32,000 nt of DNA from Nitrosomonas europaea (GTDB lineage Bacteria > Pseudomonadota > Gammaproteobacteria > Burkholderiales > Nitrosomonadaceae): NCBI RefSeq assembly GCF_900167395.1, contig NZ_FUWK01000016.1, forward strand, positions 1 through 32,000. The letters run 5' to 3'. The position numbers and the translations under genes are program-made. Shown here in pieces: positions 1,553-29,454 of the stretch. Each line of letters begins with the position of its first letter. The stretch's first letter is position 1. The notes beneath the pieces are model-generated. The model did not search any database, was not told the DNA's origin, and was given only the letters and a program-made list of their open reading frames with translations.

Positions 1553-1580
1553 AGTAGAATTCTAACTAGGAATTCTTACT
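1553..1580. promoter_or_regulatory. Imperfect palindrome upstream of vapB, candidate autoregulatory operator
   Basis: AGTAGAATTC-TAACTAG-GAATTCTTACT lies 17 nt upstream of the vapB ATG. The arms are complementary except for one extra base. It contains a TAGAAT -10-like hexamer. No convincing -35 was found. Confidence 0.35.
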
Positions 1581-1596
1581 TTTTGGGAACCTGGAT

Positions 1597-2314: not shown

Positions 2315-2401
2315 AAATAACCAATCAACATACAAGCAAGTACGACATATATGCCCTATTTGCATCATACAAATGACTACAGACAATAAGGGAAATCTTA
2401 T

Positions 2402-3163: not shown

Positions 3164-3185
3164 AAAAATTTTCCGTATGCTCTAA

Positions 3186-3457: not shown

Positions 3458-3500
3458 CTAACCCGATCAAGCTACGATTTTACCGCTACACAGTAGCGCA

Positions 3501-12039: not shown

Positions 12040-12053
12040 GTATATACCCCCTC

Positions 12054-13358: not shown

Positions 13359-13391
13359 GGTCTTCTATCCCGAAAACAGTTGGACAGCGCG

Positions 13392-14230: not shown

Positions 14231-16900
14231 ATGAAAACATGTAGAAATATCTTTTATTTCACCGGGATCAGCTTGGTTTTACTTCTTGCAGGATGTTCAG
14301 ATGATTTATCTCTGAAAATTGCAGCCGAATGTATCAAAGGTAATCACATCCAGTCCGGATCGGTTCTGGATGAAGCACAGTGTGTAAACAGATCTGCAGA
14401 GAGCTTTCCGGGAGCGGATGAAGATTATTTCAAGGATATGGATTATGGAATCAGCCAGACTCCTGATAAGGTAGTCGCTGCCCTTGAGCCCTTCGTGCCC
14501 GGCGTTTCACAGAATCCGGACGAGGCTGTCAAATCGATAGTCAGAGGCCGAAACAACTGGATCGTCTGGACGGGTGGCAACGACAAGTTCTGGGATTATA
14601 TGAGCGTGAAGAGCTTTGGCAGCTTCGATCTGCTGAAAGTGCTGTCGAATCATCCCAGGCTTGTGAAAAATCCGGGATACAGCCGCGACAACCGATGGCA
14701 CTGGTTTGGTCTGGTCAATGAACCGTGTTTCATAAAAAATACCGACGCGCAAGGCAAACTGGTCGGGCGTGAAGATCGTTTCGGCCTATATCTGGATGTA
14801 CGAGATCCGACCTGTCCTGCTGATCCGTTTGAAAATGAGGAAAAATATCCAGGCGTCAAAATTGGTGCGCGTGGCAAAACCGTGCCAGTGGGGTCTTATT
14901 ATGGTTATGCGACTGGTATTGTAGGTCTGCGCCTGTTTCCCAATCCCGATTTCAATGAAGCCGCAAAAAAACGCTGGGATGCCGAAAAATATTATTCTGA
15001 TCCGAATTACTACAATAATCCCAAACTGGTCAAACCGTACCGGGTGGGAATGGCTTGCAGTTTCTGTCACGTAGGACCCAACCCGACCAACCCGCCTGAA
15101 GATCCGGAAAATCCGCAGTGGGCCAATCTCAATTCCAATCCCGGGGCACAGTATTTCTGGTTCGACCGGGTATTCGCGTACGAGGCCGATAAAACCAGTT
15201 TCGCCTACCAGCATCTCCATACCAACCGGCCGGGTGCTTTGGATACCTCACTCATCTCCACCGACTACATCAACAATCCGCGTACCATGAACGCTGTTTA
15301 CAGCCTTCCTGCACGGATGCTGAATACCTTACGCTGGGGTGAAGAAAAATTGAACGGTGGCGAGCGGGATAACAAGCAGTTCAATCATTTCGACGAAATC
15401 CCTGCCGACAGCCCGCTCAGAGCCTTTTTCAAAGATCCGGATACGGTACTGACGCCGCGTGTGCTCAAAGATGGTGCGGATTCGGTCGGTGCACTGGGCG
15501 CATTGAATCGTGTTTTCATCAATATCGGTTTGTTCAGTGAAGAATGGCTACAGCACATCAATCCCCTGGTAGGAGGAAAGCCGTTTACACCTTTCCCGAT
15601 CAAAATAGCCGAACAGAATTCCAGCTACTGGCGGGCAACCGAGCAGCAGACGCTGGATGGCGCCTTGTTTTTTCTGGTTGCCACCCCTCCGGATCATTTG
15701 AAGGATGCTCCCGGGGGTAAACATTACCTGACCGATGATGAAGAAACTCTGGAACATGGTAAGAAGGTATTTGCCGAGCATTGTGCTGCTTGCCATTCGA
15801 GTAAATTACCGGACGAGGCAAACAAGTTTTTCCCTGATAAAGGGTGTGTCGGCCCTGATTACTTGAAGTGCTGGAATCAGTATTGGCACTGGACCAACTC
15901 ACCCGAATTCAAGGAGAAAATGACAAAGCTGGTCATGGAAGAAGATTTTCTCAAAGAGAATTTCCTGTCCACGGAGTTACGCATCCCGGTAACTCTGCTG
16001 GAAACCAATATTTGTGCGTCGATCGCGACCAATGCCATCCAGGGAGATACCTGGGACAATTTTTCTTCGACTTCCTACAAAAATTTGCCTTCGGTAGGAA
16101 AAGCACTGATCCATCATCCAGTTACACGCAAACCTGCAGATCACGTCATGCCAGACGGGGGACGTGGTTATATTCGTCCACCTTCCCTTTCGAGCATTTG
16201 GTCTACAGCACCATTTTTACTGAACAATACGGTCGGGAAATTTTATCCCTCGGGTTCAGTGGAAGATCGTATGAAATCTTTCGAGATCAGTATCGAGCAG
16301 CTGCTATGGCCCGAAAAACGCTACTGCGATCAGAAAGATCTGTACTACTACGGACAGGATAAAGAAGGAAAAGGCTCCTATGCCTATGATTCGGAAGCAG
16401 CAGGCAGTTGCGAAGGAAAAACCTATCTGACCCGATCCGGCAAAGAAGTACCGGGTATTATCGACCGGACGACAGAAAGGAGTGAGCTAAAAGTACCGAA
16501 AGGTTACCTGCCATGGTATGTCAGAATTCTCCCTATTGGTGATGGGTTGGAGCTTGGTCCATTCCCTGAAGGCATTCCTGTGAATCTGGTTTCCAATACC
16601 AATATGGAAATGAACTGGGGGCAGCGGCTTTCTCTTTCGTGGGATCTTGCAAGGGCTATCGGGTGGGATATCTTTGATTTGTGGAAAGCCCAGGAACATC
16701 CTGAAAGCATGACTGATGAAGAGCTGCGCAAAATATTGAGCGGGATAGTCGATCCTTTACTGGGCGTTAACAAATGTCCGGATTTTGTCGTTAACCGCGG
16801 GCATTATTTCGGCACAGACTACCTCCCGGCAGAAGAAGGCAGAACAGCGCTCGATGATAACGATAAACGTGCTTTGATCGAGTTTCTCAAGACCATGTAA
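14231..16900 (+). CDS. Large di-haem c-type cytochrome lipoprotein (unknown family)
   Basis: 889-aa ORF with a GGAG Shine-Dalgarno sequence 7 nt upstream. The lipoprotein signal is MKTCRNIFYFTGISLVLLLAGC (lipobox LAGC). There are two CxxCH haem-c motifs: CSFCH (15056-15070) and CAACH (15782-15796). Confidence 0.7.
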   Translation: MKTCRNIFYFTGISLVLLLAGCSDDLSLKIAAECIKGNHIQSGSVLDEAQCVNRSAESFPGADEDYFKDMDYGISQTPDKVVAALEPFVPGVSQNPDEAVKSIVRGRNNWIVWTGGNDKFWDYMSVKSFGSFDLLKVLSNHPRLVKNPGYSRDNRWHWFGLVNEPCFIKNTDAQGKLVGREDRFGLYLDVRDPTCPADPFENEEKYPGVKIGARGKTVPVGSYYGYATGIVGLRLFPNPDFNEAAKKRWDAEKYYSDPNYYNNPKLVKPYRVGMACSFCHVGPNPTNPPEDPENPQWANLNSNPGAQYFWFDRVFAYEADKTSFAYQHLHTNRPGALDTSLISTDYINNPRTMNAVYSLPARMLNTLRWGEEKLNGGERDNKQFNHFDEIPADSPLRAFFKDPDTVLTPRVLKDGADSVGALGALNRVFINIGLFSEEWLQHINPLVGGKPFTPFPIKIAEQNSSYWRATEQQTLDGALFFLVATPPDHLKDAPGGKHYLTDDEETLEHGKKVFAEHCAACHSSKLPDEANKFFPDKGCVGPDYLKCWNQYWHWTNSPEFKEKMTKLVMEEDFLKENFLSTELRIPVTLLETNICASIATNAIQGDTWDNFSSTSYKNLPSVGKALIHHPVTRKPADHVMPDGGRGYIRPPSLSSIWSTAPFLLNNTVGKFYPSGSVEDRMKSFEISIEQLLWPEKRYCDQKDLYYYGQDKEGKGSYAYDSEAAGSCEGKTYLTRSGKEVPGIIDRTTERSELKVPKGYLPWYVRILPIGDGLELGPFPEGIPVNLVSNTNMEMNWGQRLSLSWDLARAIGWDIFDLWKAQEHPESMTDEELRKILSGIVDPLLGVNKCPDFVVNRGHYFGTDYLPAEEGRTALDDNDKRALIEFLKTM

Positions 16901-17002
16901 TTCTGTAACGGCGGGTAATCCAACATGCAGCCGGAATATCCGCCGTATTTCTCAGTTTACAGATCACGACGCTCTACCCGTTTTCTGCTCCAGGAGATAT
17001 CT

Positions 17003-18949
17003 ATGATTGAGCCTGCCTCCCCGGAAAATAATCAGATCGATAGTGATAGTGACGAAAAGTTTGACTATGTCGTCATCGGCTCCGGTGCAGGAGGTGGGCC
17101 AGTCGCCTGCAAACTGGCTCTGGCAGGATTTCGTGTGCTGTTGCTGGAAGCCGGAGGAGATGATGAGCCCTGTGATTACAGGGTTCCGGCATTTCATGCA
17201 CGTGCTTCGGAAAATGAAGCGCTTCGCTGGGATTACTTTGTTCATCATTATGGCGACAAAGTCCGGCAGGAATATGATTGCAAGTTCAGCAAAGAAAAGA
17301 ATGGTGTGCTTTACCCTCGCTCGGGCACATTAGGCGGATGTACCGCACATAATGCCATGGTTCTGATGTATCCCCACAATAGTGACTGGGATTACATTGC
17401 CAAACTGATGAATGATCCCAGTTGGCATAGCAGAAATATGCACAAATACTTCCGCCGTCTGGAACGCTGCGAATATGTTCCAAGATGGAAAATCTGGAGT
17501 CGCCATGGATTTGACGGCTGGTTGCCAACCAATCCAGCTAACCGCTGGATGCTGTTGAAGGACAAAGTCCTGACAAAACTGACGATCGCCGCAGTGAAAG
17601 AATCCCGGCGCATGATGCATCCGCTCAAACGTTTTTTTCTGGGGATTCTGAAATTTATCATTCGCTTCGATCCCAATGACTGGCGTTTGATTCGCAGGAT
17701 TCCTGAAGGACTGTGCAAAATTCCGATGACGATCCAACACGGCAAGCGGGCAGGTACCAGAGAGTACATCCTGCGGGTTCGGGAACAATGCCCTGACAAA
17801 TTGATAGTAAGAACCCACTCATTGGTCCAGCGGATCCTGCTCGACGAACATAACAGAGCTTACGGCGTGGTGTATCGTGTGGGCGCTCATCAATATCGCG
17901 CTGACCCCCGGCACGAAGAATCAGTTGTCTCCGAAGCCAAAACAGTTTGTGCAAAACGTGAAATCATCATTGCTGCGGGTGCTTTCAATACGCCTCAACT
18001 GCTCATGCTATCCGGGATTGGTCCGCGGGAAGAACTGGAAAAACATGAGATCGAGGTAAAAGTAGAACTGCCAGGTGTCGGAAAAAATTTACAGGATCGC
18101 TATGAAATCGGCGTGGTAACGAGACTCAAAGAAAACATTCCCCTGATCAAAGGAATGAAATTACGCCCGCCAGAACCTGGAGAAGAGCCAGATCCGCAAT
18201 ACGCGCTGTGGCTCCAGGAAAAAGGACCTTACACCACGAACGGTGCAACGATTGCGCTCATCAAGCGCTCTTCTGCCAAACATCCAGATGACGATCCGGA
18301 TCTGTTGATTTTTGGATTGCTCGGTAATTTCAGCGGCTACTATCCAGGCTATGCTCGTGATATTACCCGAGATAACAGTCGCTATCCTAATGCGCTATGT
18401 AATAAGAATGGCGACCACTCTGATACCTGCAAAGAAAATATCTTTACCTGGGCCATTCTCAAGGCACACGCAAGCAACACGGGATATGTCACCTTACGAT
18501 CCAGCGATCCGCGCGATGTGCCTGACATCAACTTCAACTACTTTCCTGAAAATGAGGATGACAGCAGTAGCAAGAAGGATCTGGATTCAGTAGTAGAGGG
18601 CGTGGAAACCGTTCGCAATATTCTCGAAGATTGCGGGGATCTGGTTGATGAAGAAATTCTACCGGGTGCAAACGTCAGCAGCCGAGATGAAATCCGTCAG
18701 TTCATCAAGGATCAGGCCTGGGGGCACCATGCTTCCTGCACCTGCAAAATGGGACCGCGAAGCGATGAAATGGCCGTCGTCGACAGCCGGTTCCGTGTTT
18801 ACGGAACCACTGGCCTGCGGATTGTCGATGCTTCAATCTTTCCCAGAATACCGGGTTTTTTTATTGTATCCGCCATCTACATGATCAGTGAAAAGGCCGG
18901 TGAAGTCATTATTGAAGATGTAAGGAGTAAACTTGGAAACCACAGCTGA
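17003..18949 (+). CDS. GMC-family FAD-dependent oxidoreductase (choline dehydrogenase / alcohol oxidase superfamily)
   Basis: The Rossmann motif is FDYVVIGSGAGGGPVACKLALAGFRVLLLEAGG. The C-terminal GMC signature region is AWGHHASCTCKMGP...VVDSRFRVYGTTGLRIVDASIFP. The start is taken at the ATG at 17003 (AGGAGA Shine-Dalgarno sequence 6 nt upstream). The ORF is open to 16925. Confidence 0.85.
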   Translation: MIEPASPENNQIDSDSDEKFDYVVIGSGAGGGPVACKLALAGFRVLLLEAGGDDEPCDYRVPAFHARASENEALRWDYFVHHYGDKVRQEYDCKFSKEKNGVLYPRSGTLGGCTAHNAMVLMYPHNSDWDYIAKLMNDPSWHSRNMHKYFRRLERCEYVPRWKIWSRHGFDGWLPTNPANRWMLLKDKVLTKLTIAAVKESRRMMHPLKRFFLGILKFIIRFDPNDWRLIRRIPEGLCKIPMTIQHGKRAGTREYILRVREQCPDKLIVRTHSLVQRILLDEHNRAYGVVYRVGAHQYRADPRHEESVVSEAKTVCAKREIIIAAGAFNTPQLLMLSGIGPREELEKHEIEVKVELPGVGKNLQDRYEIGVVTRLKENIPLIKGMKLRPPEPGEEPDPQYALWLQEKGPYTTNGATIALIKRSSAKHPDDDPDLLIFGLLGNFSGYYPGYARDITRDNSRYPNALCNKNGDHSDTCKENIFTWAILKAHASNTGYVTLRSSDPRDVPDINFNYFPENEDDSSSKKDLDSVVEGVETVRNILEDCGDLVDEEILPGANVSSRDEIRQFIKDQAWGHHASCTCKMGPRSDEMAVVDSRFRVYGTTGLRIVDASIFPRIPGFFIVSAIYMISEKAGEVIIEDVRSKLGNHS

Positions 18950-19036: not shown

Positions 19037-21898
19037 TTACCGAGTAAATACTTCATCCCCCTCGGCACCGCGCCGGGGTTTCCATTGAGTGCTGTAGTAT
19101 TCTCCGCGATCTCGCGCCCAGGGATCGAACAGGTTGACCACACCCTGAAGCTCATCCGCCAGCTCGGGCAACGTTCTCAACAGGACTCGCTTCAGCGGAG
19201 AAACCGGTTGCCGGTGACCATTGTACGTCCCCTCTTCCATTATTTCCGGGCCCGGCCCATTGTGCATTACCCACTCCACTCCCAGAATGCTATAGAACTC
19301 CGGGCGAAAACTCGAAGTAAAAAACCGGTCGCTGAAGAGTCTGCGTGAAGCATTGAGAACGAACACGACGAACTGGGTTTCTGAAATGGCAAAACCGTGC
19401 GGCCGTTTGAATTCCGCCAGCCAGCCGACGACCGTATCGACATCCTCGATATTGTCTACAAGACTGCCGTCGGGATGCCCCAGACAATCGTTAATGGGTG
19501 ATTTGTCGTCATTCAGCTGGGCGTTTGTGATCAGTCTGGATGCATCGCACCGGTGCTGTCCGTATACCTCACGTAATGTCCGCACGAGCTGCTCCTGTTC
19601 GCGACGAACAGACGAATCTCCGGGCACGCGCGGATCGATGAAATCATCGAAGCTGGTCAATTGCTTCAACCCGTACTGCCGACGAAACTCGTTATAGCGC
19701 GGAATGCCCCGCTCCCGGTCGCGAATGAGATCGAGTGCAGCAATGTCGATTTGCCGGGTGGATGATTGCAGATGAGGGATCTTCAGGTTTTGCAAAAACC
19801 GCGGATGATTCTGGAGCGTCAACGCACCTGCCCGCTGACGACCCATGCTGAGCGCCCAGTTTGCCAGGCCTTTCTGCCGCATCGCCCCGGTGGCTTTACC
19901 GCGAAAGGTATCGATGACAGGTATTTTTTGCCGAATGATATTCGGATTGTTATGCCATTCACGGTATTCGATCAAATCCGGCAACAAAGGATGCAGTCGA
20001 TATACCGTGACGAACTCTTCAGGAAAACTGAAAGGAGAACCAAAATGGTTGACTCCGCCATTGATATCTTCGTTGCGGGTGAGTGTCCAGATATCCTTTC
20101 TGTTGCGATCGACCAGGGAATAGAGCGGCGCGCCTTCATAGCGATGATTGCCTAACCCGAAAATACCTGCTCCACCAGCGAAAGCGGCATGAAGACTGTT
20201 GCTGATACCTTCGGTATCGTCCAGCTGGCGGATAATTTCTCTCAGTACCTCGGATACCGCCGCATGTTCGTGAAATAACCCATGCCAGTTGGCGTTCATC
20301 CCCCGATACAGCGGCTCGTTGTACAGCAGCTGCGTCGTCCACTCAAGGGTATGGATCTTGGCGATCTCGGCGGCAATCACCAGTCGGGCTACATTGAATA
20401 ATTCGCCTGCCGTGACATCCCGGTAACGAATGATCATCTCAGGGTGCGCCGGGTTCCTCAAGCCGCTGTCAGCATCAGGTGTTTTGGCTGCCTGCTTGCG
20501 GAATTCCTCAACAAAAGCATTGTGCTCTCTGGCAAAGACATTATGAAAAAAACTCAATCCAATGGACCAGTTGTCCGGAAAAGCGGCTGCTTCCTGACCT
20601 GACCATGCCGGATCGATCGGATCATCCACTTCAAAGGTCGGCAAGTATCCGGATTCATCGCCTCTATCCACGCTTTCTCTTACATGAATCAGCGCTAATT
20701 TGGCAGCATCCTCGGGATCCCGTTTCACCCGCTGACTGGAGCGCTCGTCATAGCCATAAAGCTGTGAGGCATCCCACCAGGCTGTCACATGATTACGTGT
20801 CGTTTTCGGCGCGCGTGTGCGATAAAGGTGGCCGTCGTGCATGAACGATGCGGGCGGTGTGTCATCATCGATCGGTGCAACATGGATTCTGTCACCCGGC
20901 CGGCAGCCCAGCTGGCGGGCTTCCTTCGCTGCCAAAGGCTGTTCGATGTTGTCAATTCGCTGAGTTATACAACCCACCGTCATCCACGCTGACTGGTCAG
21001 ATTCCTCTTCCACATGAGAAAACCAGTCATGGGTCATGAACTGAATCCAGAAAGCTGCCAGCACATTCAGGGCCGGTGCTTTTTTGTAATCACATGCGAA
21101 TTTCTCAAGATCGCCAGATAACTCGTCGTCGTTCCGGCATTTATCAGGCTGTGACTGCGTGCGCGTAAACAATTTCCGGCTGATGACCTGCGGATCGGGT
21201 TTCAGCAAACCCAATCGATCTCCATGACGATTCCTGGCCATCTCATCGAGGCCCAGATCAGGAAAGGTCGTATCGAACTGGACATTGCGCGCAAAGATCT
21301 GATGAGTCGAGCCCATCAACGGATTGTAGATATCGTTACAGATACCGGTAACAGTACGAAAACGAATCAATTCGCCACTGCAAACCTGATGTTCCTGATT
21401 ATGCTCAACGTCCTTGTAACGAGGATGAGTTGGCGGTAACTGCATTTCCGGCCAGACTTGTAAAACAGGGCCTGCCCTGCCATCACGGCCTGTCACATAA
21501 GCCTGGTAAGTACCGCTATTGTCAAAGAGATTGAATTTGATCAGCTCGATCCGCTGCAACTCCAGTTCATAAAGCGCACTGTTGATGCCACGTTCATTCG
21601 GACCGAAAAACGAGCTGGCCAATGGCGAAGAAGATAATGACAAGCTGTCACCTGTTCCCCAGAAATTTGGCCAATCCAGCCAGGGATTCCGGTTGAGCGC
21701 CACAGCATGATCTCCACCAAGACAATGCGCCCGTCTCCCGGTGACCTTACCGAGAAACCGCTGTTCTCTCGTCTTGGCAACGTGCTGAATGTCACCTTGC
21801 ATGAGCACAGAGAGACAGGATATTTCAGGTTCCAAAGCATCACATCCGCTCAAAAGCAGTAATCCTGTCAGTACGATAACTATCGGAAAGTGGCTCAT
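19037..21898 (-). CDS. Haem peroxidase of the peroxidase-cyclooxygenase superfamily, alpha-dioxygenase/PIOX-like, lipoprotein
   Basis: 953-aa ORF. The lipoprotein signal is MSHFPIVIVLTGLLLLSGC. It carries FRTVTGICNDIYNPLMGS (animal-haem-peroxidase type motif), the distal motif AAFWIQFMTHDWFSH, then FAREHNAFVEEF and IAKIHTLEWTTQLL. The Tyr/proximal-His motif EEFVTVYRLHPLLPD corresponds to plant alpha-DOX ...YRMHSLLPD and COX ...YHWHPLL. Confidence 0.85.
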   Translation of the reverse strand: MSHFPIVIVLTGLLLLSGCDALEPEISCLSVLMQGDIQHVAKTREQRFLGKVTGRRAHCLGGDHAVALNRNPWLDWPNFWGTGDSLSLSSSPLASSFFGPNERGINSALYELELQRIELIKFNLFDNSGTYQAYVTGRDGRAGPVLQVWPEMQLPPTHPRYKDVEHNQEHQVCSGELIRFRTVTGICNDIYNPLMGSTHQIFARNVQFDTTFPDLGLDEMARNRHGDRLGLLKPDPQVISRKLFTRTQSQPDKCRNDDELSGDLEKFACDYKKAPALNVLAAFWIQFMTHDWFSHVEEESDQSAWMTVGCITQRIDNIEQPLAAKEARQLGCRPGDRIHVAPIDDDTPPASFMHDGHLYRTRAPKTTRNHVTAWWDASQLYGYDERSSQRVKRDPEDAAKLALIHVRESVDRGDESGYLPTFEVDDPIDPAWSGQEAAAFPDNWSIGLSFFHNVFAREHNAFVEEFRKQAAKTPDADSGLRNPAHPEMIIRYRDVTAGELFNVARLVIAAEIAKIHTLEWTTQLLYNEPLYRGMNANWHGLFHEHAAVSEVLREIIRQLDDTEGISNSLHAAFAGGAGIFGLGNHRYEGAPLYSLVDRNRKDIWTLTRNEDINGGVNHFGSPFSFPEEFVTVYRLHPLLPDLIEYREWHNNPNIIRQKIPVIDTFRGKATGAMRQKGLANWALSMGRQRAGALTLQNHPRFLQNLKIPHLQSSTRQIDIAALDLIRDRERGIPRYNEFRRQYGLKQLTSFDDFIDPRVPGDSSVRREQEQLVRTLREVYGQHRCDASRLITNAQLNDDKSPINDCLGHPDGSLVDNIEDVDTVVGWLAEFKRPHGFAISETQFVVFVLNASRRLFSDRFFTSSFRPEFYSILGVEWVMHNGPGPEIMEEGTYNGHRQPVSPLKRVLLRTLPELADELQGVVNLFDPWARDRGEYYSTQWKPRRGAEGDEVFTR

Positions 21899-21953
21899 CT
21901 GAAATCCAGAAGCTCTACCAGGCTATTAGAAATTCATACGAATCCCGCGAGAA

Positions 21954-23621
21954 TCAAACCGTTACCCCATTCGGGATGATTCTTGGATTCATCCGGTCAT
22001 AGGGAACAGGTCGGCTGCTGTTTCTTTGATCGATTCGTCCTTCTATTTCCTGGAGCCGTTTTCTGAAGCGCTCTATGACATCACGTGCTGCCGGGTCAAA
22101 TTGCCGCAACGGATACTGGCCGATACGATTGACAGTAAAATTTGTCTGGAAATAAGTCCAGGTTTGCGAATATGCCGCCCGGAATGCGGGTTGAAACTTC
22201 AACAGCCCGTCTGCATCCATTTCCGCACCTTTCCCCACCGGGGGAGGTGCATAAGCCGAATGAGGCATATTGGGAACAAAACCCGGATATTTGTACTGGT
22301 TGAAATGAATGCACGAATGGAATGCCGTACATAGAAAAATGACATGGCCAATAGTCTCGGCCAGTTCCTGTCTGGATGCAAACCTGGCGGGAAACCCGGG
22401 AATTCTGCCGCGATCCCGGGCGCCGATATCATGCGCCCAGGCCTGAATCTCGCAATCTTCAGCCACATCCCCATCCGATTGATAGCAGACATCGATATAT
22501 TCTGTGGCGAAGTGCTGGATTGCATTCCATAACAACACACCATCATCACGATACGGATAAAAGAGATCAGGGTTATCGACTTCCCGGCTGGCAATATCGT
22601 TAGGGAAGGCCGATGCCCTGAAGTCAAAACTTGTCATACCATTGGCCATGCACTGAGTCGTCGCATCATAATCTCCGGCAAACAGCTCACCATACCGGCC
22701 GGGGCGCCCTTTTCGATCCCGCAGGAAGGTGTGCTGATGATTGACGTTGAGTGTATGTCGAAGATGCGGATTCAACAGCACACAGAGCGGATGAGATTTA
22801 TAAAGCTGCCGGCGTGAGGCCATGATAATGGCTTCCATCACATAATGAATGCGGGTGGCATGGGTAACCAGTATATGGTGATTACCATCTGCGACCTGGG
22901 CAAACGTTTTGGCTGCCAGCCACAGATTGCCATCGTTTGGAGTATAAATGGGATTGTCAGGCCCGGCATCCTGATACAGCTGGATGGCAATCGGCCGCAA
23001 TATGCCATCTGCTTGCAGAAACAGCACCACAATCGGGGTTGTGACATATTGTTTACGGCCGCCATCGATTTGTCCGGGATTGCGCTGCAATATCTCCAGA
23101 TCTGCATAATCCAGGATATACACACGCTTTTGCGTAATTGCAGTCGCATAGTCAGTTTCATCAACATACTTTGCAAAAACACGCTGGATTTCAGATTCCG
23201 GTAATTTCTGTGGCAGCGGATGCTGAGAAGTCACGGCGCGCAATACGACAGGATTTACCCCGATGACACGTTGCAGGCCAAATATCAGATCCTGCTGAAA
23301 GTTATCGACCAGTGCCGGATTCGGAGGGCTAAACGGATAAAAAATATAGTCGCGGTAGCTTTCCATCGGTTTGCCAAGCAAATAGCGCATATACGTCACC
23401 AGCAGACTCGGCAGACTTGGAATCAGCTGCAGCAAATTGATCCCGCCACGCAGCCAGTATCCAGGCCCTGGTATCTCCCGACATGGCAGTTTGCGTACCA
23501 CAGCAATCGTATTGGCATACTCGTAGGCATATTGATACTGCGCCTGTCTTCGCAGCAGATAATTTTTCCTATTCTCTACCGTGCGTCTGTTTTCTTCCTG
23601 TTGTGGCAGCTTGTTCATCAT
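21954..23621 (-). CDS. Lipoxygenase, short form without N-terminal PLAT domain (mini-LOX)
   Basis: The motif WLAAKTFAQVADGNHHILVTHATRIHYVMEA contains the H-x4-H metal ligands (His codons at 22877-22875 and 22862-22860). FHSCIHFNQYKYPGF contains the H-x3-H ligands. The C-terminal ...RIIPNGVTV corresponds to the canonical IPNSISI carboxylate ligand. The start is taken at the ATG at 23621 (AAGGAG Shine-Dalgarno sequence 7 nt upstream). The ORF is open to 23651. Confidence 0.9.
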   Translation of the reverse strand: MMNKLPQQEENRRTVENRKNYLLRRQAQYQYAYEYANTIAVVRKLPCREIPGPGYWLRGGINLLQLIPSLPSLLVTYMRYLLGKPMESYRDYIFYPFSPPNPALVDNFQQDLIFGLQRVIGVNPVVLRAVTSQHPLPQKLPESEIQRVFAKYVDETDYATAITQKRVYILDYADLEILQRNPGQIDGGRKQYVTTPIVVLFLQADGILRPIAIQLYQDAGPDNPIYTPNDGNLWLAAKTFAQVADGNHHILVTHATRIHYVMEAIIMASRRQLYKSHPLCVLLNPHLRHTLNVNHQHTFLRDRKGRPGRYGELFAGDYDATTQCMANGMTSFDFRASAFPNDIASREVDNPDLFYPYRDDGVLLWNAIQHFATEYIDVCYQSDGDVAEDCEIQAWAHDIGARDRGRIPGFPARFASRQELAETIGHVIFLCTAFHSCIHFNQYKYPGFVPNMPHSAYAPPPVGKGAEMDADGLLKFQPAFRAAYSQTWTYFQTNFTVNRIGQYPLRQFDPAARDVIERFRKRLQEIEGRIDQRNSSRPVPYDRMNPRIIPNGVTV

Positions 23622-23686
23622 GTGACGCTCCTTTAAAAGGATAAAATTCATCCAGTTCCCGGATTACTTCACTGCGACATCCTCAT

Positions 23687-25288
23687 TCAAGCAACAGCAG
23701 AGGTTCTGAAACTTGCAATAACCGTATCGCTGTCCCTGACATTACGTTTAACGATATCTGCAAGCAGACTGGTTTCTTCGATGATCGATTGCCCGACGGA
23801 CGAGAAGGTCTTTTCATTATGTACGTAGCCCGATACCAGTGGATTGGTCAGAGCATGGGTAAATGCATCGTAACCCACCATCCGCACCATCAGGCGCCCC
23901 AGACTAAACCCTTCATCGTGATCTTCCGCAAAGATACCGACCTGCCACTCCAGGTCATCGATGCGATCGTTATACAGTTCCTTCAACTCCCGTTGCAGCG
24001 CCGGATCTGCTGTCAATTCCTCAAAACTTCTCAAACGCGGCATGCTGAATGCCTGGCGGTAATCATTGAATGAGCGCAGTTTGGCCTGACGCCCCATCTC
24101 TACGCTGCGTTCCATGACACTCCGGTTATCCGCACCCACAGGCAATGGATCAAAAAAGAACTGAGGCGTGTTGTACAAACCGACACGGCCGGCTTTTTGC
24201 TGCGAGGCTGCTGATATCATGGTTCCAATACCATATTGGTGTGTGACCAGCGCGGTATTGTTGCGAAACTCATCGAGCGTGTATCGCTGATCACCGACAA
24301 AGTAGTATTCCGGCACCATCGAATGCCACCTGTAGAGCAGATTGAATTCCAGAGAAATCCAGTTGGTGCGATACCAGCGCTGCCTTTCCGCCATCCCCGG
24401 TGTAGGATCGAGCGTAAAACCAAATTGTGTAAAATGCGAAACATAATCCTGCAACACCACTTTAATCAGCAGCACGATCATGATGTTTCTGGCTGTCTGG
24501 AACAGACGTTCATCATCCCAGGTGGGATGCGCTTCTTTGAGCACGTCACAGATCCGATTGTGTTCACGCAACATGATAGTATTCATGAGGGTATAGCCAA
24601 TCGATGAATTACCATGTTCCAGCCCGGTGGCAAACATACGCTTCAACCGTTCTTCCGGGACATTGTCAAAAACAAATTCCAGAACAGCGCGGGGATGCAG
24701 ATTCTCAAATTCCCTGTCAGCAAACACCCAATTATCTGCAGTCGTTTCTTCTACATTGAAAAGGTAAGGAGGAAAAATTTCTCCATCGATGACCTGATAT
24801 TTCAGCTTGCCATCCTTTTTCAACCGCAGCAAATGCGTGATGTCTTCACGCAAGCCATAGATCTGGCACAGATCGATTTCGTGATTTGATGTATTTTTCC
24901 GGCGATCGAAAAAATCTGTCCGCAGAAAACTATCGGTGAACCATTGAGCGAAAAAAGAAAACAGGATGCTGGTATCAACTGACGGGATTTCCCTGTTTTC
25001 TTTTCTGCGCCACAGATTGACAACACTTTTCAGATCCGGAAGATTCTGTTCTCCTTCCGCTTCCGGCAGATGTCGTCCGGTGAATGTCCGGTCTGTCAAT
25101 GCCTGCCATGTGGTATAGGGAGCGGCCATGGAGAATGGCCTGGGACGGGGGTTTGTGGCATAGGCCTGCCAATTGATAAAAGTATCGCTGATCCAGCGCC
25201 GCAACCACGTTATGCGCGAGGCGACTCGACTGATCCATGGGAATCGGTTCACAAGCCGAAAAATGATCTGAAAAAAGAATTCATTCAT
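23687..25288 (-). CDS. Cyclooxygenase-like haem protein (prostaglandin-endoperoxide synthase homologue, catalytic domain only)
   Basis: 533-aa ORF with an AGGGGA Shine-Dalgarno sequence. There is near-colinear similarity to animal COX motifs: LFSFFAQWFTDSFLRTD (COX: FFAQHFTHQFFKTD), HEIDLCQIYG, TIMLREHNRICDVLKEAHPTWDDERLFQTARNIMIVLLIKVVLQDYV (COX: [47 protein letters not shown]), and EFNLLYRWHSMVPE (COX: EFNQLYHWHPLMP). There is no signal peptide or EGF-like region. Confidence 0.88.
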   Translation of the reverse strand: MNEFFFQIIFRLVNRFPWISRVASRITWLRRWISDTFINWQAYATNPRPRPFSMAAPYTTWQALTDRTFTGRHLPEAEGEQNLPDLKSVVNLWRRKENREIPSVDTSILFSFFAQWFTDSFLRTDFFDRRKNTSNHEIDLCQIYGLREDITHLLRLKKDGKLKYQVIDGEIFPPYLFNVEETTADNWVFADREFENLHPRAVLEFVFDNVPEERLKRMFATGLEHGNSSIGYTLMNTIMLREHNRICDVLKEAHPTWDDERLFQTARNIMIVLLIKVVLQDYVSHFTQFGFTLDPTPGMAERQRWYRTNWISLEFNLLYRWHSMVPEYYFVGDQRYTLDEFRNNTALVTHQYGIGTMISAASQQKAGRVGLYNTPQFFFDPLPVGADNRSVMERSVEMGRQAKLRSFNDYRQAFSMPRLRSFEELTADPALQRELKELYNDRIDDLEWQVGIFAEDHDEGFSLGRLMVRMVGYDAFTHALTNPLVSGYVHNEKTFSSVGQSIIEETSLLADIVKRNVRDSDTVIASFRTSAVA

Positions 25289-25458
25289 AGCGCATCCCCT
25301 TTTTGTCAGTGATAACTTACATTTCCTTCAGCTGCTGGAACTTTGGTCTTAGTGTGTATGCGGCTGCCTGGTAGCTGTTTTTTCTCCCTTTCTCAAAGTG
25401 CACTCAAAAATGAAAAGTGCGATTCATCAAATCCTGTTCTCAAGACAAAGCAATCAGC

Positions 25459-26961
25459 TCATCCCTGCGTCACCCGAACAGAATAAGCACCTGTCCCGGA
25501 TGGCGAGTAGTGTCTTACACGAACGAAATATTCACCCGGAGAAAGTTGACGGCGGATCAGCGCGTTGAAGGAGATGCCTGAATCATCGTTGCTGGCGATT
25601 TCCGGTATCTGGCTGTTCGGGCCATGCAAGCTCATGAAGGTATCCGTTGTCCCATTCGTCTGGATGGTATAAAAATCTCCCGTAGTAACATTAAACCGGT
25701 ACACATCGCTTTCATTCGCTGCAGAAATCGATGCATCGATGCCCACACCATTCACGATGAGCTCGGGGATCGGAACCGGGCCGGGACCAGGGCCTGGAGT
25801 GGCACTGACTGCGCGCACGCCAACCGCATAATTTCCCGTACTGTTCGGGCTGTACAGACGAACGCGCAGAAAATAAGTACCTGCAGACAGATTGCGGTTG
25901 ATTTGTGCATTGAAACCCTCGCCTGCATCATCATCTGATGCCACTTCAAAATTCGGATCATTGGGGCCGAACAGAGTCATGAACGTATCGGATGATCCGA
26001 GGGTATACATCGTATGAGCACCGAAGGCCGGGACTTCGAAACGGAAAACATCGGTTTCTCCCGGCACGCCGATAGCAGCTGCTATCGGATCGGCTCCAAC
26101 GACAATGAGCGGTATTTCCGGCTGAGGTTGCGGCTGAGGAGCAGCATCATCATATACGATACCCAGCGCTGCACTGTCCAGCACATCGATAGGACGCGAC
26201 CCGACCTGTCCTGAAGGGGTACTACCCATTGGATCAGTCAGATTTTGACCAAAAGGGCCGCCACTGGCTGGTAAATAACCTTGATTCGGGAAGCGCAGTT
26301 GCCATTCATGCCAGATTTTATCCACCATACAATGGTGCATGAAAAACACCGGATCATTCGGGGAAGTCATCGGCAGCATGGACCCCCCCACCCAGACATG
26401 ACCACGGTTGTGCAGATTGGGGCCAATCCAGCCTTCCAGCTGATTACGGAAACTTGGATTGCTGTTCATGTTCCACGGCGATGTATCATAGGGCGTAACG
26501 GCCATGACTTGATTGATTGCCGCTTGTGTGGGTAAGGTTGGCAAGCCGTTCTGACCGAAAGCGCGCATCAGCGGACCTGCTGGCAATCCGCTGGAATTGA
26601 TGACAGTCCATTGCCCGGAGCGGAATGGACCGGTACGGACAACACCACCGGCATCTCCATTGCCACCCAGCAAATCATCATTCCACATGGAGGCATTGGC
26701 GCTACCTGATGGCCAGTTCCAGTAAGGTATCCCGAGATTCGGGTTACCCGAAACGCGCTGCAGTTCCAGTTCGAGATCATAAATAAAGCGGCGGTGCCAC
26801 GGCAAAAAAGCAGAGCATCGGTGAATTGCACTCATATTGGCGTTCGCATGTCTGAGCACGAATCGATCATAGATGCCTTCGGCCTTCAACACGCGAATGG
26901 CAGCAACGAATTCTGCCCGTTCTGCAGCAGTCAGTGTATTTGCATCTTTTCTGATAGCCAT
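25459..26961 (-). CDS. Tyrosinase (type-3 copper oxidase) with two C-terminal PPC (pre-peptidase C-terminal) domains
   Basis: The CuA region is AIHRCSAFLPWHRRFIYDLE. The CuB region is LHNRGHVWVGGSMLPMTSPNDPVFFMHHCMVDKIWHEWQ. A PQPQPQPE linker is followed by PPC repeat 1 (about 25771-26115, ...ETDVFRFEV...DTFMTLFGPN...ASDDDAG...GTYFLRVRLYS...). A PGPGPGP linker is followed by PPC repeat 2 (about 25462-25770, ...ESDVYRFNV...DTFMSLHGPN...ASNDDSG...GEYFVRVRHYS...). The start is taken at the ATG at 26961 (GGAGG Shine-Dalgarno sequence). The ORF is open to 26976. No signal peptide is visible. Confidence 0.9.
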   Translation of the reverse strand: MAIRKDANTLTAAERAEFVAAIRVLKAEGIYDRFVLRHANANMSAIHRCSAFLPWHRRFIYDLELELQRVSGNPNLGIPYWNWPSGSANASMWNDDLLGGNGDAGGVVRTGPFRSGQWTVINSSGLPAGPLMRAFGQNGLPTLPTQAAINQVMAVTPYDTSPWNMNSNPSFRNQLEGWIGPNLHNRGHVWVGGSMLPMTSPNDPVFFMHHCMVDKIWHEWQLRFPNQGYLPASGGPFGQNLTDPMGSTPSGQVGSRPIDVLDSAALGIVYDDAAPQPQPQPEIPLIVVGADPIAAAIGVPGETDVFRFEVPAFGAHTMYTLGSSDTFMTLFGPNDPNFEVASDDDAGEGFNAQINRNLSAGTYFLRVRLYSPNSTGNYAVGVRAVSATPGPGPGPVPIPELIVNGVGIDASISAANESDVYRFNVTTGDFYTIQTNGTTDTFMSLHGPNSQIPEIASNDDSGISFNALIRRQLSPGEYFVRVRHYSPSGTGAYSVRVTQG

Positions 26962-26993
26962 GAGAATTTCCTCCATGTTTTTATCTGCAGGAA

Positions 26994-27209
26994 TTACTCT
27001 TTCACACCGGAGAATTCAACGGTGTCCCGGATGATCGCCCGCGCCAGATCCAGTAATGAATCATATTGGGTATAAGGCAGATATCTCGAAGACCACTTGT
27101 TTTTTACTGCATCATGTACGTAACTGATTTCCTTTCCATTGATTGTGAGGCTGGTATCGTCTTCTATATCGATCGTACCGCCTTCAAAAACTTCTGTATG
27201 GTGTGTCAT
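26994..27209 (-). CDS. Hypothetical 71-aa protein immediately upstream of the tyrosinase (candidate accessory protein)
   Basis: An AAGGAG Shine-Dalgarno sequence lies 7 nt upstream. Its ATG overlaps the stop of the preceding gene in an ATGA overlap at 27209-27206. It ends 32 nt before the tyrosinase start. The sequence MTHHTEVFEGG...KWSSRYLPYTQYDSLLDLARAII... matches no family I recognise. Confidence 0.5.
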   Translation of the reverse strand: MTHHTEVFEGGTIDIEDDTSLTINGKEISYVHDAVKNKWSSRYLPYTQYDSLLDLARAIIRDTVEFSGVKE

Positions 27210-27751
27210 TTGTAAACTCCTTTCTGGATGAATGACAATCGATCTGCTTTTACTGCAGTCCTTGCTGCGTCATCGATCACCGTGCATTGCAGGTTTGCGG
27301 TAACGATGACATTTTCCATCTCGCGTCCACGTGCACGAATTACAGCAGATATATCAATAAAGTACCCGTCCAGCCCGTCATAATTCAGATGTGCAAACCC
27401 CAGCGTCCCGGGAAAATCTGATAGCGCATTCTTCATGCCCGTGGTCCTTGTGGTCAGCAATTCGAGGCTCATTGCTTTTTCGAAAAAGGATGCTGCAAAG
27501 TCTCCCGATTTTGTTACATTCTCGACCATGAAGCAGCCCTCGTAGCGTGCCTTTAATTTGAAAGTACCCTCTTTCGATAGAGTCAATATTCCGGAATGAA
27601 GCGTTGGGACCCCGGTACAGCCATTCATACTGGCTGACGTAATGGAACACGTCATATTTTCCAGATGGAAGGGCTCCCTCGATATTGCCGTGGTACTTTT
27701 TCCAGCCAGCAATACCAGGATTCCCGTCAGGATCACAGCAGCCTGTTTCAT
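27206..27751 (-). CDS. Hypothetical secreted protein, first gene of the tyrosinase sub-operon
   Basis: The ORF is open to 27799, but the ATG at 27751 gives a clean signal peptide, MKQAAVILTGILVLLAGKSTTA. The mature part contains 4 Cys. No recognisable family. Confidence 0.5.
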   Translation of the reverse strand: MKQAAVILTGILVLLAGKSTTAISREPFHLENMTCSITSASMNGCTGVPTLHSGILTLSKEGTFKLKARYEGCFMVENVTKSGDFAASFFEKAMSLELLTTRTTGMKNALSDFPGTLGFAHLNYDGLDGYFIDISAVIRARGREMENVIVTANLQCTVIDDAARTAVKADRLSFIQKGVYK

Positions 27752-27806
27752 CGCATCTTTCCCTGATAGCCCACACGCAGAGACAACCCAACGCTTCATT
27801 TTTACG

Positions 27807-28565
27807 CTATTTCACACAGATACCCGCGCAGTCGGCACCTCCCTTGGCAGGATCACAGTCATCCGAGGGATCATCCACACACTTCATACCTTCGGGGCAG
27901 GGAAAACCGGCAATCCCTCCACACATTTGTTTAGGCTTCTGACCATCGTATGCAGCGCTTCCTTTGGGCGGATAATCAACACGTTTTCCCTCTCCACGCC
28001 CGGGCAGCTCGGTGGTACCCAGCTTCACGATATCGTGTATCCTTTTCGATTGAACAGTTTCGACATCGATCGATTGAACTTCTCCCTCCACGGGTCGTGC
28101 GGTATATACCCCTACCACATCCAGTGGAACAGGACTTTTCACTACCAGAAACCCCTCCAGAAATGCAAAATCTACGCATACCCCATTAATCGGGCAAAAG
28201 TAGCCGGCAATGTCAAAGCAATTTACTCCGACAGCACCATCCGGTTGCAGTGTAATTCCCTTGAACGGCGTAACATTGAAAGGGCCTGGTTCGGAGCCCA
28301 TCTGAGTGGAAAGTGCCACCTTGGCGGCAACCGTGATTTTCTTGCTGGCAGGATTGTGAATATTGATGATAGTACGGTATATGCCTTTCGCCAGAGTACC
28401 GTCCTGGTGTGGCAGTAATAACGAACACGCCACTTTTGCAGCATACTGATATTCGGTTTTGATTGTCTCGTATTTTGCTGTTTCTGCCTGAGTACCGATT
28501 GGATTAAACAAAAGCCATAACCCGAGAACAATTGAAAAGAGTTTGATCACATTCGATTGTTTCAT
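27807..28565 (-). CDS. Secreted protein with unknown N-terminal domain (INIHNP motif) and a C-terminal 6-Cys module
   Basis: The start at the ATG at 28565 has a GAGGTGG Shine-Dalgarno sequence 6 nt upstream. The signal peptide is MKQSNVIKLFSIVLGLWLLFNPIGTQA. The C-terminal module CGGIAGFPCPEGMKCVDDPSDDCDPAKGGADCAGICVK (27810-27923) is shared with the neighbouring gene. Confidence 0.6.
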   Translation of the reverse strand: MKQSNVIKLFSIVLGLWLLFNPIGTQAETAKYETIKTEYQYAAKVACSLLLPHQDGTLAKGIYRTIINIHNPASKKITVAAKVALSTQMGSEPGPFNVTPFKGITLQPDGAVGVNCFDIAGYFCPINGVCVDFAFLEGFLVVKSPVPLDVVGVYTARPVEGEVQSIDVETVQSKRIHDIVKLGTTELPGRGEGKRVDYPPKGSAAYDGQKPKQMCGGIAGFPCPEGMKCVDDPSDDCDPAKGGADCAGICVK

Positions 28566-28746
28566 GATAGCCACCTCACCGAGTGTTGTGCCCTCTACAG
28601 ATACCATGTTCCTGATGTGTATCGCATCCGCACCGGGCTAATAACAGGCCCACTTCATCTTGCCCAACCCGGGAGACAGAGTGGCCTCTCACGTTACCTG
28701 CAAAATATTTTTACCTCCATTTTTCTAAAAAACACATAAAAAGATG

Positions 28747-29454
28747 TCACTGACCCTGCCCGGCAATACATATCCCCGCACAATCTGCTCCCCCGTGTTC
28801 GGGATCGCAGGTATCACCCGGATCATCAACACATGCCAGGCCATCCGGACACCTGATTCCTGCAATTCCTCCGCAAGCCTGGGGTTCTGCTGTTTTACAT
28901 TCACCCTCATGATCGATAGAAACACCTGCCGCAGCCGCTCCACAGGCATTACCATAAGTTTTTCCGTCACAACCGCAAACCGGATTGAACTCTCTCGTGC
29001 AGATTGTTGGCCTGGTTTTACAGACACCTTGCGCATCAGCAACTTTGCACTGGCCGATGCCCAAATCACAGTACTGCTCGGCAGGACAGGCCAATCCCTG
29101 GATCGTGCCGCAAACTTGTGGTTGTAATTGAGGTTGTGGGGGGTTGCCTTCCTCACAACCCGCTACGACCAGAGAAACAGAAAGCACGATCAACCAGGTG
29201 ATCAATGCATTCAGATATCGTGGCAATTCCTTCCTGGTCTTGCGCGTGATCGATGGTGGCGACAGACCCCGGCCAGAACTGAACGCCCCATTGCCGGCAC
29301 CGAAATCGGAAGAAAAGTAAAGTTGTGGATTAAAACCAGAACAGCCTGATCCGGGTAAACCCAGGGCAGAAGTAAATTGCGTGGGGGACCGCTTTCCTGC
29401 CAAAACACACGCATTTCGAGCTTGAGTTCCGGCCTGATTTTTCTGCTGTTTCAT
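28747..29454 (-). CDS. Membrane-anchored or lipoprotein Cys-rich protein: Kazal-type inhibitor domain plus the shared C-terminal 6-Cys module
   Basis: The ATG at 29454 has a strong AAGGAGG Shine-Dalgarno sequence. The hydrophobic segment LNALITWLIVLSVSLVVAGC ends in a lipobox-like VAGC. An in-frame TTG at 29226 after AGGAAGGAA would give a classical lipoprotein precursor. The Kazal signature is CTREFNPVCGCDGKTYGNACGAAAAGVSIDHEGEC. The C-terminus is CGGIAGIRCPDGLACVDDPGDTCDPEHGGADCAGIC. Confidence 0.65.
   Translation of the reverse strand: MKQQKNQAGTQARNACVLAGKRSPTQFTSALGLPGSGCSGFNPQLYFSSDFGAGNGAFSSGRGLSPPSITRKTRKELPRYLNALITWLIVLSVSLVVAGCEEGNPPQPQLQPQVCGTIQGLACPAEQYCDLGIGQCKVADAQGVCKTRPTICTREFNPVCGCDGKTYGNACGAAAAGVSIDHEGECKTAEPQACGGIAGIRCPDGLACVDDPGDTCDPEHGGADCAGICIAGQGQ

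Follow-up and report, generated by a model that had tools for sequence, protein, structure and literature searches.

To our knowledge, oxylipin pathways of bacteria have been described in a handful of cases, namely LoxA and the oleate-diol synthase of Pseudomonas aeruginosa, and the 10S-dioxygenase (10S-DOX) of Nostoc with its lyase. Ammonia-oxidizing bacteria are key organisms of the nitrogen cycle, and their lipids, as far as we know, are devoid of the polyunsaturated substrates usual for lipoxygenases (LOX) and cyclooxygenases (COX). Here we analyze a window of 32,000 nucleotides from the ammonia oxidizer Nitrosomonas europaea (contig NZ_FUWK01000016.1, positions 1 to 32,000 of the forward strand), in which the genes for a COX-like protein (NE1240), a LOX (NE1239) and an alpha-dioxygenase (alpha-DOX)-like protein (NE1238) follow each other on the minus strand. 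A first-pass annotation had joined these genes into a single operon, whose three dioxygenases would act sequentially or combinatorially on one pool of fatty acids. Based on protein families, residue conservation, synteny, co-divergence, signal sequences and transcription, we favor with moderate confidence a different arrangement, in which two units lie side by side, a conserved oxylipin module of NE1240 followed by NE1239 and a separate NE1238 gene.

Several described systems combine an oxygenase with a partner enzyme. The 10S-DOX of Nostoc punctiforme (B2J5P4; Brash et al. 2014, summarized in PMC13049297) oxygenates oleate and linoleate and has a neighboring catalase-related hydroperoxide lyase as its partner. 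NE1240 resembles the Nostoc enzyme in its COX fold, the FTDSF motif in place of FTHQF, the substrate-site motifs and the Tyr-His spacing, as well as in being encoded beside a second enzyme, which in Nostoc converts the hydroperoxide. In contrast to Nostoc, the partner of NE1240 is a mini-LOX rather than a catalase-related heme protein, the hosts are ammonia oxidizers and methanotrophs, and the activities of the pair are predictions. The fungal fusions of a dioxygenase with a cytochrome P450 (DOX-CYP; linoleate diol, allene oxide and epoxy-alcohol synthases, Ppo) likewise unite a COX-related dioxygenase with a dedicated hydroperoxide-transforming partner, and two relatives of NE1240 (L027 and P0066, see below) carry the same fusion; however, the second activity of Nitrosomonas would reside in a separate non-heme iron LOX, and the distal-site residues differ. 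The proteins of the PA2077/PA2078 operon of P. aeruginosa (di-heme 10S-DOX and 7,10-diol synthase) constitute, as the Nitrosomonas pair would, a two-gene pathway, and it acts on mono-unsaturated fatty acids. Their wider family also includes the di-heme proteins linked to LOX genes in other bacteria, a comparison made by heme-motif spacing and not by sequence, and the NE1236 protein of our window is a distant relative. In contrast to PA2077/PA2078, the N. europaea pair combines a COX-fold enzyme with a LOX and contains no c-type cytochrome. Finally, mammalian 12R-LOX/eLOX3 provides a precedent, by analogy only, for a LOX-family hydroperoxide isomerase that acts on the product of another oxygenase, although there both enzymes are LOXs and eLOX3 keeps Ala at the Coffa site.

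The genes described here have been annotated since the genome was sequenced and are not new in themselves. Early surveys of LOXs in bacteria reportedly mentioned NE1239, and NE1240 is said to appear in phylogenies of its superfamily. The literature that we searched contained only passing mentions of NE1238-NE1241, of Nitrosomonas LOX or COX proteins and of the peroxidase-cyclooxygenase superfamily, and no report of the conserved pairing, the alternative di-heme partner or the aberrant Coffa region.

The COX-like and LOX gene pair

The main features of the locus are as follows.

25289..25458, minus strand: region of 170 nt 5' of NE1240, the likely promoter region of the pair
23687..25288, minus strand: NE1240, COX-fold heme fatty-acid dioxygenase, best called bacterial 10S-DOX type, 533 aa; Pfam and PDB matches
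23622..23686, minus strand: COX-like/LOX spacer, 65 nt, with the LOX ribosome-binding site and a single weak hairpin followed by a T-run
21954..23621, minus strand: NE1239, mini-LOX, 555 aa; Pfam and PDB matches
21899..21953, minus strand: LOX/alpha-DOX-like spacer, 55 nt, free of terminator-like structure and with a weak Shine-Dalgarno sequence
19037..21898, minus strand: NE1238, alpha-DOX-like heme protein with a lipoprotein signal peptide, 953 aa

Our check of the open reading frames (ORFs) agreed with the first-pass annotation on three intact genes in a row at these coordinates, and its family assignments (COX-like, LOX, alpha-DOX-like) proved correct by Pfam and solved-structure matches. 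The longest NE1239 ORF begins at 23651; however, the ATG at 23621 has an AAGGAG sequence 7 nt upstream and is used by most gene callers, and therefore the previously chosen start at 23621 is the better one. With this start the gaps are exactly 65 and 55 nt, as had been reported. The 533-aa product of NE1240 is identical, residue for residue, to that encoded on the ATCC 19718 chromosome (AL954747.1, at about 1.35 Mb) and is also encoded by many wastewater metagenome contigs. In a published expression table, NE1241 is labeled as tyrosinase, NE1240 as "Ptgs1" and NE1239 as "ALOX5", and NE1238 carries no label (PMC6967387).

For comparative analysis, one genome per species was scanned, 80 loci were kept and the proteins of the window were compared by tblastn. 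Wherever the COX-like protein is at least 65% identical, in 18 loci out of 18 (in Nitrosomonas, Nitrosospira, Nitrosovibrio, a Methylomonas metagenome-assembled genome (MAG) and a Pseudomonadota MAG), the LOX gene lies directly downstream and in the same direction. Of the 60 loci whose COX-like protein shows 53% identity or less (Actinomycetota, Alphaproteobacteria and others), not one carries a LOX gene within 10 kb. Clustering of neighboring ORFs in about 60 loci revealed no recurrent partner for the actinobacterial and alphaproteobacterial COX-like genes of about 50% identity, and thus these genes look stand-alone. An ORF of 476 aa lies about 3.7 kb from such a stand-alone gene in three actinobacterial loci (L028, 15304-16734, and two others); to the eye it looks catalase-related, which recalls the lyase partner in Nostoc. 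Scanning in the reverse sense, from the LOX side, placed a COX-like gene upstream of the LOX gene in 7 metagenome loci, and also in Methylomonas sp. MgM2. Every metagenome LOX locus with enough sequence had it there, except for a subset with a RoxA-like partner. The loci examined for LOX genes of this clade that lack an adjacent heme oxygenase gene numbered 80 and 12.

The two proteins have also diverged together. The distance matrices of COX-like and LOX proteins from 22 loci, in which the gaps between the two genes range from 51 to 203 nt, are correlated with a Mantel r of 0.953, a value reached in 0 of 2,000 permutations. The surroundings of the pair are unrelated between genomes, and in Nitrosovibrio the pair is bounded by oppositely oriented genes. 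In the Methylomonas MAG (L088, 1077-12879) it lies between resolvase/Tn3 transposase and DDE transposase fragments, suggesting recent transfer as a cassette. As judged from these patterns, the pair behaves as a two-gene functional cassette. Genes for patatin-like phospholipases neighbor the pair in three Nitrosomonas lineages, which supports an acyl-lipid substrate.

The COX-like gene is not the only partner of such LOX genes. At five other loci (L102, L104 at 761-3485, L106, L107 and L109) it is replaced before the LOX gene by a gene for a RoxA-like di-heme cytochrome c; the LOXs concerned are some members of the clade and a sister clade at 41-44% identity. L109 (5984-13234) shows the order RoxA-like, LOX, RoxA-like, RoxA-like, and in the complete genome of Beggiatoa leptomitoformis (L107, 6115-9656) the RoxA-like and LOX genes overlap by 10 nt. 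The LOX-linked RoxA-like protein is a lipoprotein that scores 528 bits against NCBIfam NF040606 and has its CXXCH motifs 243 aa apart; the respective spacings in the oleate 10S-DOX and 7,10-diol synthase of P. aeruginosa are 245 and 235 aa (PMC4496055).

Conversely, the LOX itself has counterparts. A COX-like protein of 63% identity from a gammaproteobacterial MAG (L027, 6721-9663) carries a C-terminal cytochrome P450, and no LOX gene was found within 10 kb downstream of it; the COX-like dioxygenase of Planktomarina (P0066) is likewise fused to a P450, a domain combination otherwise described for fungal linoleate diol synthases. Fungal DOX-CYP enzymes have the same architecture as L027, and their P450 converts the hydroperoxide made by the dioxygenase (PMC13049297). 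The slot behind the heme dioxygenase thus appears to be filled by a P450, by a catalase-related lyase (in Nostoc) or by an NE1239-type LOX. In turn, the LOX seems to take either of two unrelated heme oxygenases, and characterized relatives of both make oleate 10S-hydroperoxides. Because the LOX gene always stands behind a heme oxygenase gene and a P450 is fused in its place in a relative, the LOX is probably the second step of a two-enzyme pathway. By analogy with eLOX3 and PA2078, it would probably process the product of the heme enzyme.

NE1238 and the operon question

The position of NE1238 relative to the pair varies, even among Nitrosomonas species. The distances from the LOX gene to the alpha-DOX-like gene are as follows.

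N. europaea and contigs nearly identical to it: 55 nt
N. communis MAG: 53 nt if the longest ORF is taken, as much as about 250 nt if homology is used
Nitrosomonas L092: 1,017 nt, containing two small ORFs
N. mobilis: 4.9 kb, with Sel1-caspase, two unknown and autotransporter genes in between

In Nitrosospira, Nitrosovibrio, Methylomonas and the other MAG loci examined, the pair has no alpha-DOX-like gene beside it. The closest relatives of NE1238 outside Nitrosomonas belong to Nitrospirota (64-73% identity), where the gene is stand-alone and has different neighbors in each of four contexts. In two Nitrospira-type contigs (L090, 15-6939, and L091, 745-4819) the gene for the lipoprotein follows copies of amoC, suggesting comammox-type Nitrospira. 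A general tie between the alpha-DOX-like gene and amoC was rejected, since the three other Nitrospirota contexts have unrelated neighbors.

The predicted location of the protein differs as well. The N-terminal sequence MSHFPIVIVLTGLLLLSGC, followed by D, fits the lipobox [LVI][ASTVI][GAS]C by eye (LLSGC, Cys19), and at least 90% of 20 NE1238 homologs retain the lipobox Cys, with 10 further Cys residues invariant among them. In contrast, no signal peptide was seen when the N-termini of NE1240 (amphipathic helices) and NE1239 were read by eye. Given the variable spacing, the absence beside the pair elsewhere, the stand-alone occurrence in Nitrospirota and the lipoprotein signal, NE1238 is separable from the pair, and gene order and phyletic distribution describe it as a separate, separately evolving unit.

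A single three-gene operon acting on one substrate pool, as proposed in the first-pass annotation, is unlikely in our estimate, although a number of observations agree with it. The genes share a strand and are separated by 65 and 55 nt, and consensus scans and folding gave no convincing internal terminator or promoter across the three genes, in line with the earlier statement that no terminator is visible between them. The terminator scan picked out a single weak candidate in the 65-nt gap, a 6-bp stem with 3 GC pairs, and the number of terminator-like sites in the region (14, with 8.3 +/- 3.7 expected) shows no enrichment. Both spacer RNAs fold no better than shuffled sequence (z of -0.52 and +0.71), and the consensus scan called no promoter site upstream of NE1240 (25289..25458). 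The sequence thus appears to hold nothing that would forbid read-through transcription. The trio recurs with the same spacing in N. europaea-like metagenome contigs, and the gap is short in the N. communis MAG. In N. marina Nm22 (L021, 9995-19217) the COX-like and LOX genes are followed by genes for a patatin, an aldehyde dehydrogenase and a TPR-fused canonical alpha-DOX, all co-directional, and in two actinobacterial MAGs a GMC oxidoreductase gene is followed by alpha-DOX (with a 4-nt overlap), a 758-aa protein and COX-like genes. Transcript levels of all three N. europaea genes are modest and of similar magnitude, at 36-92 transcripts per million (TPM).

The single operon is opposed by the compartments, by the widening of the gap to 1 kb and 4.9 kb in other Nitrosomonas, and by the pairs and the alpha-DOX-like genes that occur on their own. 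Expression also moved in opposite directions in one data set from chemostat cultures, where oxygen limitation raised NE1238 from 36 to 67 TPM (about 1.9-fold, p = 0.037) and lowered NE1239 from 92 to 63 TPM (about 1.45-fold), with NE1240 steady at 58-65 TPM (PMC6967387); this opposite change is weak evidence for separateness. Since adjacency, order and tight spacing of the LOX and alpha-DOX-like genes are not conserved, we infer that the 55-nt spacing is specific to the N. europaea lineage, with read-through possible and not conserved. A sequential reaction of two enzymes is well supported for the first two genes, and its extension to NE1238 is not supported. In our reading, a fixed COX-like/LOX core lies within a variable island of lipid-oxidation genes, rather than within a three-gene operon.

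Active sites and candidate substrates

NE1240 matches the An_peroxidase family (PF03098, E-value 5.5e-42), and its closest solved relative is mouse COX-2 (E-value 4e-70, over residues 12-518). The LYRWH motif, in which the first-pass annotation had placed the catalytic Tyr and proximal His, contains Tyr319 and His322, and EFNLLYRWH aligns with EFNTLYHWH of COX (Tyr385, His388). NE1240 shares with COX-1 and COX-2 the fold and the equivalents of Gln203, Tyr348, Tyr385, Trp387 and His388. Asp119, by contrast, stands where COX has its distal His207 (FAQWFTDSF versus FAQHFTHQF, with Gln115 retained as Gln203), a replacement that had been overlooked. In the HMMER alignment with mouse COX-2, the channel residues Arg120, Tyr355, Ser530 and Gly533 are replaced by Gln41 (in a variable column), Phe, Ala475 and His478, respectively, and only Tyr348/Val349 are kept among the channel residues compared. 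The EGF domain is missing, since the alignment begins past it at about residue 60 of the COX-2 chain. The FFAQWFTDSF and LLYRWH motifs are invariant in 11 diverse homologs down to 49% identity, suggesting that Asp119 is a family trait and not a sign of decay.

The same replacement occurs in the Nostoc enzyme, for which F143tdsF is listed where COX has F205thqF (PMC13049297). The motifs given there for 10S-DOX, namely a central I/V-x-x-x-Y-I/V-x-x-x-T...L, a terminal x-G-x-D-A-F-x-Q/H-A and the catalytic FxxxY, are matched in NE1240 by VLQDY282VSHFTQFGFTL, VGYDAFTHA and FNLLY319, in addition to F117TDSF, and the spacing of 37 between Y282 and Y319 equals that between Y305 and Y342 of 10S-DOX. 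Because NE1240 reproduces these motifs, it is best called a bacterial 10S-DOX-type heme dioxygenase, and a prostaglandin endoperoxide synthase function is unlikely judging from its residues. The label "COX-like" holds for fold and family but is better replaced by this name, as NE1240 departs from animal COX at the distal His207 and the channel residues and in lacking the signal peptide and the EGF domain. Calling the proteins eukaryote-style is misleading, since bacterial homologs of the COX-like protein exceed 3,700 (3,708 homologs at an E-value of 1e-20 or below).

NE1239 matches the Lipoxygenase family (PF00305, E-value 8.7e-58), and its closest solved relative is the mini-LOX CspLOX2 of Cyanothece sp. 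PCC 8801 (5MED, 569 aa; E-value 4.6e-73, full length). As in CspLOX2, there is no PLAT domain: NE1239 has no PF01477 match for the beta-barrel, and its alignment to 5-LOX begins at 5-LOX residue 145. The iron-ligand positions of the two mini-LOXs align at about 30-35% identity, whereas in CspLOX2 the Coffa site is the canonical Ala-Arg, the fourth ligand is Asn and the C-terminal residue is Ile. We know of no heme oxygenase paired with CspLOX2. The ligands of NE1239 are His249 and His254 (H249ILVTH254), His435 and His439 (H435SCIH439), so that both His pairs are kept as had been stated, and the C-terminal Val; the five ligands are invariant in the clade, with Ile as the C-terminal ligand of the Nitrosovibrio LOX.

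The Coffa region of NE1239, part of the O2 channel that in LOXs governs oxygen entry and stereochemistry, is non-canonical (VNHQHTFLRD). A clade-invariant NHQHTFL[KR]D with a two-residue insertion replaces Ala/Gly-Arg; MAFFT sets His297-Thr298 opposite the Coffa Ala-Arg and HMMER put Leu300 there, the alignment near the indel being uncertain. The deviation is invariant in the LOX clade with heme partners, and Beggiatoa-type relatives deviate too. The clade is small and sharply bounded, with about 56 clusters at 67% identity or more, followed by a drop to 38-44%.

NE1238 also matches PF03098 (E-value 2.9e-67), and its sole strong solved relatives are the alpha-DOXs of rice (4KVJ) and Arabidopsis (4HHR), with an E-value of 3e-54. 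The homology is broken into six blocks by insertions, but all alpha-DOX residues have equivalents. The VYRLH motif, correctly recognized before as a Tyr/proximal His pair, contains Tyr633 and His636, which align with rice Tyr379 and His382; the distal His290 (FMTH290DW) corresponds to rice His157 and His516 (AKIH516T) to rice His311; and NASR852R853LFSDRFFTS aligns with MASRRLEADRFFTS, which includes the carboxylate-binding Arg558/Arg559 (rice numbering). These residues are all invariant in 20 homologs. Unlike plant alpha-DOX, NE1238 has the lipoprotein signal and the 10 conserved Cys, and at 953 aa, compared to about 620-650 aa for the domain, it is about 330 residues longer, with about 180 extra residues at its N-terminus as well as several insertions. 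NE1238 is 28-29% identical to the canonical bacterial alpha-DOX of N. marina, which matches the rice enzyme with an E-value of 6e-114.

From these residues we infer the following candidate reactions for the two units. In NE1240, a Tyr319 radical beside the proximal His322 would remove a hydrogen at an allylic position of a free fatty acid with one or two double bonds, and O2 would then add to give a hydroperoxide, with Asp119 standing in for the distal His of peroxidases. NE1239 would act on the same lipid, most probably converting the hydroperoxide by isomerization, by diol or epoxy-alcohol formation, or by a second oxygenation. Lacking signal peptides, both proteins should act on the membrane from its cytoplasmic side. 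The lipid-anchored NE1238 would be extracytoplasmic and likely oxidizes free fatty acids at C-2 in the periplasm, since every catalytic and carboxylate-binding residue of alpha-DOX is kept. By gene context, it would be linked more to a GMC oxidoreductase and a di-heme lipoprotein, both described below, than to the pair.

Other substrates have to be considered. The pair might attack isoprenoids (squalene, hopanoid precursors) or foreign lipids, and NE1238 might be a periplasmic peroxidase of nitrifiers against reactive oxygen or nitrogen species. The lipids of N. europaea are mainly 16:0 and 16:1, and reportedly offer no polyunsaturated fatty acid to a canonical LOX. The aberrant Coffa region points the same way, as do the membership of the alternative LOX partner in the family of the rubber (polyisoprene) oxygenase RoxA, the concentration of the long alpha-DOX-like family in nitrifiers (Nitrosomonas, Nitrospirota) and the gene behind amoC copies in one Nitrospira lineage. 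However, the Arg-Arg pair and the radical-forming Tyr of alpha-DOX are invariant, the patatin and aldehyde dehydrogenase neighbors point to acyl lipids, characterized relatives of both partner types use oleate or linoleate, and the adjacency to amoC is not general, so that we regard these alternatives as improbable. That the genes are functionless, horizontally acquired leftovers, as the transposon-flanked pair in one Methylomonas MAG and the patchy phyletic distribution might suggest, is very hard to reconcile with ORFs that are intact across genera at 65-95% identity, invariant active-site residues, transcription in chemostat culture and the unremarkable G+C content of the window, and the earlier view that the three genes are not decayed stands.

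Several points weigh against the favored arrangement of a conserved pair beside a separate NE1238. The compartments were assigned by reading N-termini and should be taken as predictions. Part of the co-divergence could stem from the phylogeny that the host species have in common, and the LOX might just work without the heme enzyme, oxygenating exogenous polyunsaturated fatty acids. NE1240 was assigned to the bacterial 10S-DOX type by published motifs and not by a tree. Its AlphaFold model (from 11 sequences, predicted local distance difference test (pLDDT) score 60.8) is good enough to recover the COX-2 fold (top Foldseek match, TM 0.70) and too poor for residue superposition; the model of NE1238 (pLDDT 35) is likewise too poor for superposition at the residue level. 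In addition, the link among all three genes is kept alive by the 55-nt gap devoid of a terminator and by their similar TPM values, and alpha-DOX-type genes recur beside the pair or the COX-like gene in N. marina and the two actinobacterial MAGs.

The proposed lipid-oxidation island and its meaning

The following genes flank the three dioxygenase genes.

25459..26976, minus strand: NE1241, MelC2-like tyrosinase that carries two PPC domains at its C-terminus, upstream of NE1240
16925..18949, plus strand: NE1237, GMC-family FAD oxidoreductase, convergent with NE1238
14231..16900, plus strand: NE1236, di-heme c-type cytochrome lipoprotein (LLAGC), 889 aa, with CXXCH at 276 and 518

NE1237 orthologs (42-46% identity; L045, 3939-5891, and L021, 2630-4495) accompany alpha-DOX-type genes in actinobacterial MAGs and in N. 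marina. Since alpha-DOX-type, GMC and COX-fold genes recur together with different alpha-DOX subtypes, a functional association among these families is plausible, and the NE1237-type oxidoreductase may act on the alpha-DOX product (a 2-hydroxy acid or an aldehyde). The SRRSTRF motif of NE1237 was rejected as a twin-arginine translocation signal, as it is not followed by a hydrophobic core and the start chosen by most callers is Met27.

NE1236 lies 24 nt upstream of the GMC gene, and its CXXCH motifs are 242 residues apart. This spacing, together with a partial NCBIfam match of 46 bits and a weak Pfam match, links it to RoxA and di-heme peroxidases; the comparison with solved structures gave no significant match. 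In Nitrosospira, Nitrosovibrio and N. marina, orthologs lie near the pair, and NE1236 may represent a fourth lipid-oxygenase family in the neighborhood. A four-gene block at 9302-13847 on the minus strand (404, 519, 434 and 151 aa) is conserved beside NE1236 in Nitrosovibrio and other Nitrosomonas. Its 519-aa member is a divergent DyP-type peroxidase (TIGR01413, E-value 6e-19, below the cut-off), and the 404-, 434- and 151-aa members had no family match.

On the other side, NE1241 lies 170 nt upstream of the COX-like gene. The tyrosinase has no obvious signal peptide or caddie gene and is present only in close relatives of N. europaea, and a published proteome includes the protein. A terminator-like hairpin with a T-run at 25360-25378 on the plus strand lies antisense to the tyrosinase/COX-like spacer, and no plus-strand gene ends there. 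Upstream of the tyrosinase, three small Cys-rich proteins are encoded at 27206-29454 on the minus strand; those of 197 and 266 aa have a hydrophobic N-terminal segment and no family match, and the 235-aa protein carries Kazal and SpvB-like segments.

The co-diverging COX-fold/LOX pair with interchangeable heme partners leads to a testable hypothesis of two-step oxygenation of mono-unsaturated fatty acids. A more specific version, which we put forward tentatively, is that this mini-LOX clade is a dedicated second enzyme behind either a COX-fold 10S-DOX-type or a RoxA/FadCcp-type di-heme oxygenase, that it has lost the Coffa Ala/Gly-Arg in favor of His, and that, in organisms devoid of polyunsaturated fatty acids, it converts mono-unsaturated hydroperoxides to diol, epoxy-alcohol or cleavage products within a four-family oxylipin island. 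If this is true, the island of N. europaea would comprise COX-fold, LOX, alpha-DOX-type and di-heme oxygenases and a GMC oxidase, joined in relatives by patatin and aldehyde dehydrogenase, and the LOX products could be signals or membrane modifiers in nitrifiers, methanotrophs and Beggiatoa. The alpha-DOX-type lipoprotein of Nitrosomonas and Nitrospira provides a separate lead to periplasmic alpha-oxidation of fatty acids, or to other heme-radical chemistry, in nitrifiers. If confirmed, the two-step pathway would widen the catalytic repertoire of LOXs and extend the logic of a dioxygenase with a hydroperoxide-converting partner, found in fungi, Nostoc and human skin, to a new combination of enzymes.

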